DNA from: Escherichia coli
GTDB taxonomy: Bacteria; Pseudomonadota; Gammaproteobacteria; Enterobacterales; Enterobacteriaceae
Assembly: GCF_013315695.1 (NCBI RefSeq)
Contig: NZ_CP054353.1
Strand: one strand, 5' to 3'
Length of the DNA: 64,000 nucleotides
A program made the translations under genes and the position numbers. Under the pieces are notes generated by a model that worked only from the letters and a program-made list of their open reading frames with translations, was not told where the DNA came from and made no database searches. Of this stretch, positions 11,942-12,860 are shown in pieces. Position 1 is the first letter of the stretch. Each line of letters starts with the position of its first letter.

Positions 11942-12860
11942 ATATTATCACTTACTGGCGGCTCATACTGAGCTGGTTAATGCTGTGCACACACAAACAA
12001 GCAATTCCATTTGTAATGTGCCTCCCTGGCAGTTTCATCCGGAACCCGGACGAAAGTAAAAATGCATATGAGTTGCACTAAAAAAGCGACTCACATTGTT
12101 CCGTTATAATGCCTGAAGTAGATCACAGAATATATCTTCAGGAATCGCATATCTATTAAGTTACTCACTCTTTTGTATTTATGACATGCGCGTGTTTGTA
12201 TAAATGTAAATGTGAGCCCTTGTTCCACTCTCGTGCAGCATCGCTGGTCATACGCGAACACGTACAAACAGCAATGGTGAGGCGGCATCAAGAGCAGGGA
12301 TCCGTCATTTATGCGAGCATTTTACCCCAAAAACCTTTTATTTATAAGGGTCATTGCGAATTATCTGATGCAAAGTTATGTTATGTTAGGCAAAGTAATC
12401 TTCTATTATTAATAAGCACAACAAAACCTTTTTGAATATTAAATAATAATTAATTAGCATCATCCTCATTCATTAATCCCGCTTAACAATAGTTTCACAC
12501 CTTGCACCCATTACGACACCTCGGAAATCATCACGCTGTTAAACTCTCCGTAATGCGGAAATATCATCATCACGATTCATTAGTGAATTCTTAAACGAGG
12601 CATTTTCAAACAATTATCTTACAGATAAAAAAACCACACTCACAATTAAGAATCAGAACAATTCACTACATAACATTAATTATTAAGCATATACACCTCA
12701 TTATTTTGCCATTATTAAGTTATTAACAGCACAATCAAGCCTTCCACTCTGGCAAAATCTTATTCTGCAGACCTTCAAAACGCCGTCCTGGGGGAGTACA
12801 TTGTTCTAAGCTGACTTCCACGGCAGGGAGTGGCGATAACAGCAAAAAAGGTCAAGATTC
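11942..12860. promoter_or_regulatory. Long AT-rich lrhA-alaA intergenic region (divergent promoters)
   Basis: ~920 bp without convincing ORF, very AT-rich by eye; flanked by divergent lrhA and alaA starts. Confidence 0.5.

Follow-up and report, generated by a model that had tools for sequence, protein, structure and literature searches.

The divergently transcribed genes lrhA and alaA of Escherichia coli are separated by 919 bp, which raises the question of what so long a spacer contains: a gene that has escaped annotation, silenced and perhaps foreign DNA, or control sequences for its two neighbors. We addressed this question in a 64-kb window of the E. coli chromosome (the whole stretch of DNA that was analyzed), in which the list of open reading frames (ORFs) places lrhA at 11003-11941 on the minus strand and alaA at 12861-14078 on the plus strand, so that the spacer occupies 11942-12860. 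Our analysis makes it very probable that the spacer is a conserved composite control region, which combines (i) an lrhA leader targeted by small RNAs (sRNAs), (ii) DNA that binds regulators, and (iii) the alaA promoter, and that it holds no hidden gene.

Length and conservation of the lrhA-alaA spacer

An earlier note on this DNA, made from the sequence alone, had pointed to divergent lrhA and alaA starts with an unusually long gap between them, and both observations were borne out. The divergent arrangement is seen in the ORF list as well as in RefSeq, where the records of MG1655 and of a strain that is 100% identical over the spacer agree on both genes and on the 919-bp distance and annotate nothing between lrhA and alaA. 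The 50 kb annotated around the spacer contain about 50 intergenic gaps, among which lrhA-alaA ranks first in length and nuoA-lrhA, with 629 bp, second. Shimada et al. (2014) listed the "920 bp-long lrhA-alaA" spacer among long spacers that are rich in transcription-factor sites.

The spacer in the window is 100% identical to that of strain MS 21-1 and 97% identical to that of K-12 (NC_000913.3, 2406642-2407560), from which it differs by 27 substitutions. Only four of these fall within the 371-nt lrhA leader, and none is found in 12783-12860, in 12314-12420, or in either of the two promoters described below. Nearly all complete E. coli genomes carry the spacer (5425 of 5426), 5383 of them at full length, and a natural deletion that is linked to IS1 spares just 166 bp in front of alaA.

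Our scan for LrhA covered 80 loci from about 30 Enterobacteriaceae genera. The divergent lrhA-alaA arrangement is kept in 78 of these loci, with spacers of 764-1140 bp (mostly 920-1010 bp), and the same layout occurs in other families, as represented by Erwinia (1014 bp), Proteus (861 bp), and Xenorhabdus (799 bp). An alignment of 79 spacer sequences gave a conservation profile with four conserved zones, namely (i) the alaA-proximal ~110 bp (60-91% conserved), (ii) an upstream AT-rich block, (iii) the lrhA core promoter together with a dyad (60-69%), and (iv) the last ~95 nt of the lrhA leader (54-79% over 11942-12030). The peaks of conservation coincide with the two promoters, the 3' part of the leader, and the one upstream block. 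The features that we place in the spacer are collected in Table 1.

Table 1. Mapped and predicted features of the lrhA-alaA spacer, in window coordinates
Feature	Position	Strand	Basis
lrhA 5' untranslated leader, 371 nt	11942-12312	-	Published leader length, SM079 primer, Hfq-bound leader fragments
UhpU pairing site adjoining the Shine-Dalgarno region	11949-11969	-	Predicted duplex of -15.1 kcal/mol
Possible long-range helix, CACAUUAC (12013-12020) with GUAAGUG (11949-11955)	11949-12020	-	RNAalifold
McaS pairing site, predicted	11974-11993	-	Windowed duplex folding
RprA pairing site, predicted	11980-11989	-	Windowed duplex folding
ArcZ pairing site, predicted	12019-12035	-	Windowed duplex folding
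Leader hairpin UCCGG-GUU-CCGGA, candidate	12038-12050	-	RNAalifold; directly 5' of the predicted ArcZ site
AT-rich DNA between the transcription starts, ~496 bp	12313-12808		Composition, conservation, published binding
lrhA sigma-70-type core promoter, putative: -35 TTATAA (12342-12347), 17-bp spacer, -10 TAAAAT (12319-12324)	12319-12347	-	Distance from the published start, family conservation
alaA sigma-70-type promoter, putative: -35 TTCAAA (12774-12779), 17-bp spacer, -10 TACATT (12797-12802)	12774-12802	+	Motif conservation
Near-invariant element ACUUCC-ACGGCA-GGGAGU at the start of the alaA leader	12814-12831	+	Conservation; RNA hairpin or DNA palindrome

The lrhA promoter and its long leader

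Melamed et al. 2023 (eLife) reported a 5' UTR of 371 nt for lrhA; counted back from the lrhA AUG, this length leads to position 12312 of the window. In their fusion primer SM079, the lrhA part starts with ATAAATGACGGATCCCTGCT, exactly as the minus strand reads from 12312. Further, Bilusic et al. 2014 (RNA Biol) detected an lrhA mRNA of ~1.5 kb with a probe from the upstream region. From the distance to this published start and from conservation in the family, we infer that the sigma-70-type motif at 12319-12347 is the lrhA core promoter. Its arrangement, TTATAA-17-TAAGAT/TAAAAT, recurs in 72 of the 79 Enterobacteriaceae sequences, and conservation ends directly past the -10 element. In these 72 sequences, the leader length implied by the motif is 299-511 nt, with a median of 397 nt. 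The 5' part of the leader, comprising its first ~260 nt (12051-12310), is conserved in length but poorly in sequence (26-44% among the 79 sequences).

Insertions of transposons or IS elements in this spacer have been reported to alter the output of LrhA in E. coli and of PigU in Serratia; in Serratia, and earlier also in E. coli, such insertions increased the output of the regulator. IS elements are present inside the lrhA leader of common laboratory strains, with an IS1 in W3110 and an IS5 in one Keio mutant, and users of such strains should treat the leader with caution. The lrhA promoter given by Shimada et al. 2014, CTGCCA-16-TATGAT, was not found by eye in the spacer of the window. The same string stands in the IS1 insA rows of their table, and their strain, W3110, has the leader IS1; we therefore read the published CTGCCA-16-TATGAT as an IS1 promoter. 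Thus, the promoter of an IS1 element has apparently been predicted as that of lrhA in at least one publication.

A probable compact promoter for alaA

The putative alaA promoter, with its 17-bp spacer, is present in 73 of the 79 Enterobacteriaceae sequences, of which 72 have TACATT and one has TAAATT as the -10 element, and the TTCAAA/TACATT pair is found in Erwinia, Xenorhabdus, and Sodalis, too. Judged from the position of these hexamers, transcription of alaA would start near 12809 and yield a leader of about 52 nt. According to the earlier note, its expectations would fail if the interval gave rise to only two divergent mRNAs with long leaders; this is essentially what is found for lrhA, with its 371 nt, whereas the alaA leader is probably short.

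A different alaA promoter, TTAAGA-17-TATAAC, was predicted by Shimada et al. 2014. By eye, it maps to about 12647-12675, from where the leader would be about 180 nt long. Its -10 element reads CATAAC in the window, and the surrounding region is only 39-50% conserved. Our literature search for work on the alaA promoter, or for Lrp or sRNA data on it, returned nothing useful.

AT-rich DNA between the two transcription starts

The ~496 bp between the two starts are, in our interpretation, untranscribed control DNA; a weak or condition-specific transcript within this interval is possible. The distance between the starts is 328-554 bp (median 495 bp) in 72 sequences, with a median GC content of 34.8%.

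The earlier note had called the spacer extremely AT-rich. Its GC content is 38.1%, versus 51.9% for the 64-kb window, in which only 0.4% of all 919-bp windows are equally AT-rich, and both AT-rich strings that had been cited were located, at 12408 and 12442. The description fits the half distal to lrhA, where 12313-12760 has 31.9% GC with local stretches of 25-28%, but not the lrhA-proximal 371 nt (11942-12312), which have 42.6% GC. The lowest GC content of any 200-bp window is 29.5% in the spacer, and the minimum of the whole 64 kb, 27.5%, lies at about 30711.

Conserved sequence is found at several places within this DNA. A dyad, ATAAT-TCGCA-ATGAC, is located at 12350-12364, just upstream of the lrhA -35 element, and takes the form ATTAT-N5-ATAAT in other genera. 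A second conserved block, TTAATAATA, lies near 12404-12412, and a longer AT-rich block extends over 12435-12498, with a profile of 50-68% over 12431-12490. A CRP-like half-site, TGTGA at 12494-12498, was noticed by eye; it is ~180 bp from the lrhA start, has no good second half, and is not claimed here as a site.

Published binding data place several regulators in the spacer. Lrp binds there in ChIP, and lrhA is a direct target that Lrp activates; OmpR ChIP likewise shows an elevated signal. SELEX with the RpoD holoenzyme detected binding in the lrhA-alaA spacer (Shimada et al. 2014), and SELEX peaks of the RpoH and RpoE holoenzymes lie about 373 bp upstream of the lrhA start codon. In addition, positive autoregulation of lrhA by LrhA has been reported. 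The earlier suggestion of multiple promoters is supported, with one promoter for each gene, and the reported regulators are several (Lrp, OmpR, and the RpoD, RpoH, and RpoE holoenzymes).

The base composition of this DNA also bears on a different explanation, in which the AT-rich half is mainly curved, H-NS-silenced, and possibly foreign, and in which its length has no specific function. H-NS prefers AT-rich DNA, and the 31.9% GC of 12313-12760, with its stretches of 25-28%, speaks for such a role. A foreign origin is, however, contradicted by the synteny and similar length of the spacer in 78 of the 80 Enterobacteriaceae loci and in three other Enterobacterales families, from which we conclude that the spacer is ancestral rather than acquired. 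The conserved blocks within it argue against silencing and against a length without function. Moreover, the genomic-SELEX table of Shimada et al. 2014 marks spacers bound by H-NS, and the lrhA/alaA row is unmarked, whereas many neighboring rows carry the mark. We therefore regard silenced or functionless DNA as a very unlikely account of the AT-rich half, for which control DNA remains our preferred reading; some occupancy in vivo by H-NS, Fis, or IHF is possible. The earlier suggestion that nucleoid proteins bind this DNA stands as far as Lrp is concerned, for which binding is documented, but the unmarked SELEX row gives no support for H-NS in particular.

sRNA control through the 3' part of the lrhA leader

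RIL-seq chimeras of the lrhA leader with four sRNAs, namely UhpU, ArcZ, RprA, and McaS, were reported by Melamed et al. 2023, who found an lrhA-lacZ fusion to be repressed by UhpU, ArcZ, and RprA and proved the UhpU-lrhA pairing by compensatory mutation. McaS formed many chimeras with the leader but did not repress, and those authors suggest that the leader might inhibit McaS. We mapped the experimentally validated UhpU base pair from the published mutant sequences (CCAGT to CGAGT in the lrhA-M1 gBlock, and CTGG to CTCG in UhpU-M1) to 11957, which is position -16 from the AUG; the UhpU-paired C is unmutated in the window. Folding of each full-length sRNA with the leader gave meaningless whole-molecule duplexes, and windowed folding was used instead. 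The sites so predicted for ArcZ, McaS, and RprA (11974-12035) fall in the conserved 3' part of the leader, and this sRNA-target segment is more conserved than the rest of the leader (54-79% versus 26-44%). Only the position for UhpU is anchored by experiment, and those for ArcZ, RprA, and McaS are predicted.

The lrhA-alaA region has yielded short RNAs. In Hfq co-immunoprecipitation and Northern blots, Bilusic et al. 2014 observed that Hfq binds two RNAs, of 150 and 350 nt, which they assigned to "ig-lrhA-alaA". These RNAs, which come from upstream of lrhA and were initially classed as intergenic, could be taken as products of an independent trans-acting sRNA gene with its own promoter and terminator, in line with the unannotated sRNA for which the earlier note had seen room; the McaS chimeras that bring no repression, and the suggested inhibition of McaS, would suit such a gene as well. 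However, Bilusic et al. 2014 saw the ~1.5-kb RNA with their upstream probe, concluded that the short RNAs are pieces of the lrhA leader, and found that Hfq destabilizes the mRNA; the interval in question sits within the 371-nt leader. Further, we found no terminator-like site on either strand of 11942-12860, and the promoter-like matches in the spacer numbered 3, with 3.5 expected by chance. A search against Rfam 15, with E values up to 1, returned one chance-level match, which lies outside the spacer. The MG1655 RefSeq record has no ncRNA in the spacer, though it does list uhpU, and the main text of the 3'-end mapping study of Adams et al. 2021 mentions neither lrhA nor alaA. A separate sRNA gene is thus very unlikely. 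A sponge role for RNA derived from the leader is possible, and the RNA would then be a processed product of the lrhA mRNA and not the transcript of a separate gene.

That the lrhA leader encodes a small protein, or an upstream ORF with a regulatory role, is very unlikely. The best candidate, of 28 codons (11952-12038, minus strand), starts with ATG and is intact in E. coli, in a divergent Escherichia lineage, and in E. albertii; its stop, 10 nt ahead of the lrhA AUG, would make translational coupling possible. However, it has no upstream Shine-Dalgarno match (score 0) and no Pfam match. Of the 15 closest sequences from outside E. coli, only 3 keep its frame and stop, and it is intact only in Escherichia. 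For most sequences from Citrobacter, Salmonella, Enterobacter, and other genera, it is absent or lies in another frame, and about 30 of the 79 sequences have no ATG ORF at its place. The conservation seen there is one of nucleotides and falls on the sRNA sites. Among ORFs of at least 10 codons on both strands, none retains both its start and its frame in these 15 sequences, which speaks against the small protein that had been considered below the ORF cutoff. No Pfam match was obtained for the longest ORFs of the spacer (84 and 66 aa), which are not conserved even in the closest genera, in agreement with the earlier view that the spacer has no credible ORF. Across the family, it is the layout, both promoters, and the sRNA-target segment that are conserved, and no conserved ORF, terminator, or Rfam family accompanies them.

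Candidate structures in the two leaders

The whole lrhA leader folds only modestly better than shuffled sequences (z = -2.1), and we therefore claim no global structure for it. Across 27 genera, RNAalifold on the last 135 nt yielded a trivial start-codon hairpin as its only consensus. Structure was visible with a clade-restricted alignment of 15 Escherichia, Citrobacter, Salmonella, and Intestinirhabdus sequences, from which two candidates emerged. The first, the hairpin at 12038-12050, shows compensatory changes in all five of its pairs (for example, CG to UA) among the 15 sequences. The second is the possible long-range helix between 12013-12020 and 11949-11955; across the 27 genera, 74.6% of its cells are paired, with double changes in four of the seven pairs. 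The whole tested structure reached 77% paired, as against at most 45% for slid controls, and this evidence is only moderate because the structure was derived from the very sequences tested. By its position, the helix could sequester the Shine-Dalgarno region. The lrhA leader may thus contain a Shine-Dalgarno-masking helix, apparently undescribed so far, in which the predicted ArcZ site overlaps one strand and the UhpU site overlaps the other. If it is real, the helix would be a pre-set structural switch on which the sRNAs act.

The alaA leader begins with a near-invariant element. All sequences with the alaA promoter motif (73 of 79) share its pattern, CTTCC-A(C/T)GGCA-GG, with the left arm and the loop almost invariant. 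The 48-nt stretch around it (12803-12850) occurs once per genome and without any mismatch in 5417 of 5425 E. coli genomes. The flanking pairs covary, yet 10 right arms break one pair without a compensating change. At the corresponding position, Sodalis and Erwinia carry a hairpin whose sequence differs, and in Xenorhabdus and Proteus none is obviously kept at the start of the alaA leader. We found no Rfam match for the element and no description of it in the literature, and it is apparently new. On sequence grounds, it could be either (i) an RNA 5' hairpin, in which case a protein or an sRNA would recognize it, or (ii) a DNA operator extending from +6 to +23; alternatively, it is merely a generic 5' stabilizing hairpin. 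Alanyl-tRNA synthetase (AlaRS) is a DNA-binding autorepressor. The element has only a weak "ACTTCC" resemblance to the alaS promoter region, and the idea of AlaRS as its ligand was dropped. That the alaA leader element is a specific cis-regulatory site, and that the lrhA leader has its Shine-Dalgarno-masking helix as well, is a joint proposal that we make tentatively and consider rather doubtful as a whole.

Comparison with related and similar systems

The locus is the one whose lrhA 5' UTR was described as a multi-sRNA target by Melamed et al. 2023 and Bilusic et al. 2014: only 4 of the 371 leader positions differ from K-12, the start-site sequence is exact in the window, and nothing essential is different. 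To this published work, our analysis adds a map of conservation across the family, the indication that leader length is conserved as well, and the two candidate structures.

Orthologous regulators are located beside alaA, across a long spacer, in Serratia (pigU-alaA), Pectobacterium and Photorhabdus (hexA-alaA), and Dickeya (pecT-alaA). In these systems, spacer insertions raise the output of the regulator, and ArcZ has been reported to control the translation of PecT and HexA. Outside the Enterobacteriaceae, our comparison of spacer sequences covered the alaA promoter and leader.

Two other spacers, csgD-csgB (755 bp) and nanC-fimB (about 1.46 kb), are listed with lrhA-alaA as long and rich in factors by Shimada et al. 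2014, and all three have a master regulator, of stress or motility, on one side. The csgD-csgB and nanC-fimB spacers are marked as H-NS-bound in that table, whereas lrhA-alaA is unmarked. Moreover, about 40% of the lrhA-alaA spacer is transcribed leader, and the partner gene, alaA, encodes a housekeeping transaminase and has a compact promoter of its own. The mRNA leaders of csgD, rpoS, and flhDC are likewise targeted by several Hfq-dependent sRNAs.

The locus also resembles the classical divergent promoter of LysR-type regulators, in that a LysR-family gene is divergent from its neighbor, a dyad (ATTAT-N5-ATAAT) is present, and autoregulation is positive. A classical LysR pair, however, has overlapping promoters and a T-N11-A box, whereas the lrhA and alaA starts are about 496 bp apart, their promoters do not overlap, and the dyad at 12350-12364 would serve only the lrhA side. 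We found no report of alaA as a target of LrhA.

Discussion

Put together, these results suggest the following course of events. Transcription of lrhA begins at 12312, from the putative sigma-70-type promoter at 12319-12347, and gives the 371-nt leader, whose last ~95 nt carry the Shine-Dalgarno region along with the known and predicted pairing sites for Hfq-dependent sRNAs. Pairing lowers the synthesis of LrhA, with McaS binding without effect, and Hfq destabilizes the whole lrhA transcript, so that Hfq-bound leader fragments remain. The ~496 bp of AT-rich DNA would collect the inputs to lrhA, namely LrhA autoregulation, Lrp, and OmpR, and the final ~90 bp of the spacer would hold the alaA promoter and its leader of about 52 nt. 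In this scheme, the start site and leader length of lrhA, the UhpU pairing, the binding of Hfq, and the occupancy by Lrp and OmpR are established by published work. Our own predictions concern the hexamers of both promoters, the point at which alaA transcription starts, the places where ArcZ, RprA, and McaS pair, and both RNA structures.

LrhA stands near the top of the networks that control motility, type 1 fimbriae, RpoS, and, according to recent reports, CRISPR-Cas. Because many signals converge on the long lrhA leader and the DNA upstream of it, this region has been a subject of earlier studies, and the content of the spacer is already largely described in the literature. What is new is the conservation map and the two candidate cis elements, namely the alaA leader element and the lrhA leader helix, which could be used for dissecting the control of lrhA or alaA. 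If the alaA leader element proves to be a regulatory site, alaA, which encodes the main alanine-forming transaminase, would gain a layer of control beyond Lrp.

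Conservation and insertions in the lrhA leader

Across the spacers of Enterobacteriaceae genera, the ~260 nt at the 5' end of the lrhA leader keep their length but hardly any of their sequence (26–44%); the lrhA promoter motif implies leaders of 299–511 nt. Two AT-rich blocks are conserved 5' of this promoter; they include a dyad, which has the form ATTAT-N5-ATAAT in most genera and lies directly 5' of the −35 element.

The leader is interrupted in Escherichia coli K-12 W3110 (L094), where an IS1 element resides ~139–147 nt 5' of the AUG and accounts for a spacer length of 1695 bp; an IS5 insertion at −137 of lrhA has been described in a Keio acrA mutant. 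The 'lrhA promoter' predicted by Shimada (2014), CTGCCA-16-TATGAT, was also given there for the rows of IS1 insA. Because the insA rows carry the same string, we read it as the IS1 promoter rather than as one native to lrhA.

Positions of the features discussed (window coordinates unless stated)
Feature	Position	Strand	Remark
nuoA-lrhA spacer	~10374–11002		629 bp
Inverted repeat	~10918–10965		directly past lrhA stop
First ~260 nt of lrhA leader	12051–12310	−
IS1 in W3110	~12080–12088 (equivalent)		L094 spacer 11313–13007
AT-rich block	12350–12364		conserved
AT-rich block	12435–12498		conserved
IS1 junction, SCPM-O-B-12142	~12694 (equivalent)		L093, locus 3252–4166
Putative alaA promoter	12774–12802	+	accompanies 5' element
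alaA 5' element, ACTTCC-ACGGCA-GGGAGT	12814–12831	+	near-invariant
ISEc23	~30346–32762		IS66 family

Gene order and flanking sequences

In Sodalis glossinidius (L092), the interval of ~2.5 kb from nuoA to alaA is free of called genes, and lrhA therefore appears to have been lost there. In Budvicia (L091), a branched-chain amino-acid transporter gene separates the LysR gene from alaA. In several of the AlaA entries, the annotated protein is extended at the N-terminus (424–500 aa vs 405), probably through start-codon miscalls.

The nuoA-lrhA spacer is likewise long and AT-rich (34–42% GC in 200-bp windows), and it contains, between A and T runs, a GC-rich inverted repeat that looks like a bidirectional terminator. 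Within the window, GC content reaches its minimum (27.5%) near 30711, at one end of ISEc23, whose tnpA is a pseudogene and which splits a PLP-dependent trans-sulfuration gene.

A conserved element at the putative 5' end of alaA mRNA

A single-piece, full-length spacer is absent from 42 of the 5425 E. coli genomes. In strain SCPM-O-B-12142 (L093), which is without lrhA, the nuo operon, and more, IS1 adjoins the spacer, and the 166 bp left 5' of alaA still include the putative alaA promoter.

Downstream of this promoter, at what we infer to be the 5' end of the alaA mRNA, lies a short element with the form of a hairpin or palindrome. The element had no matches in an Rfam search, and no description of it was found in the literature searched. 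An identical copy is present in 5417 of the 5425 E. coli genomes, and the element is kept across the Enterobacteriaceae.
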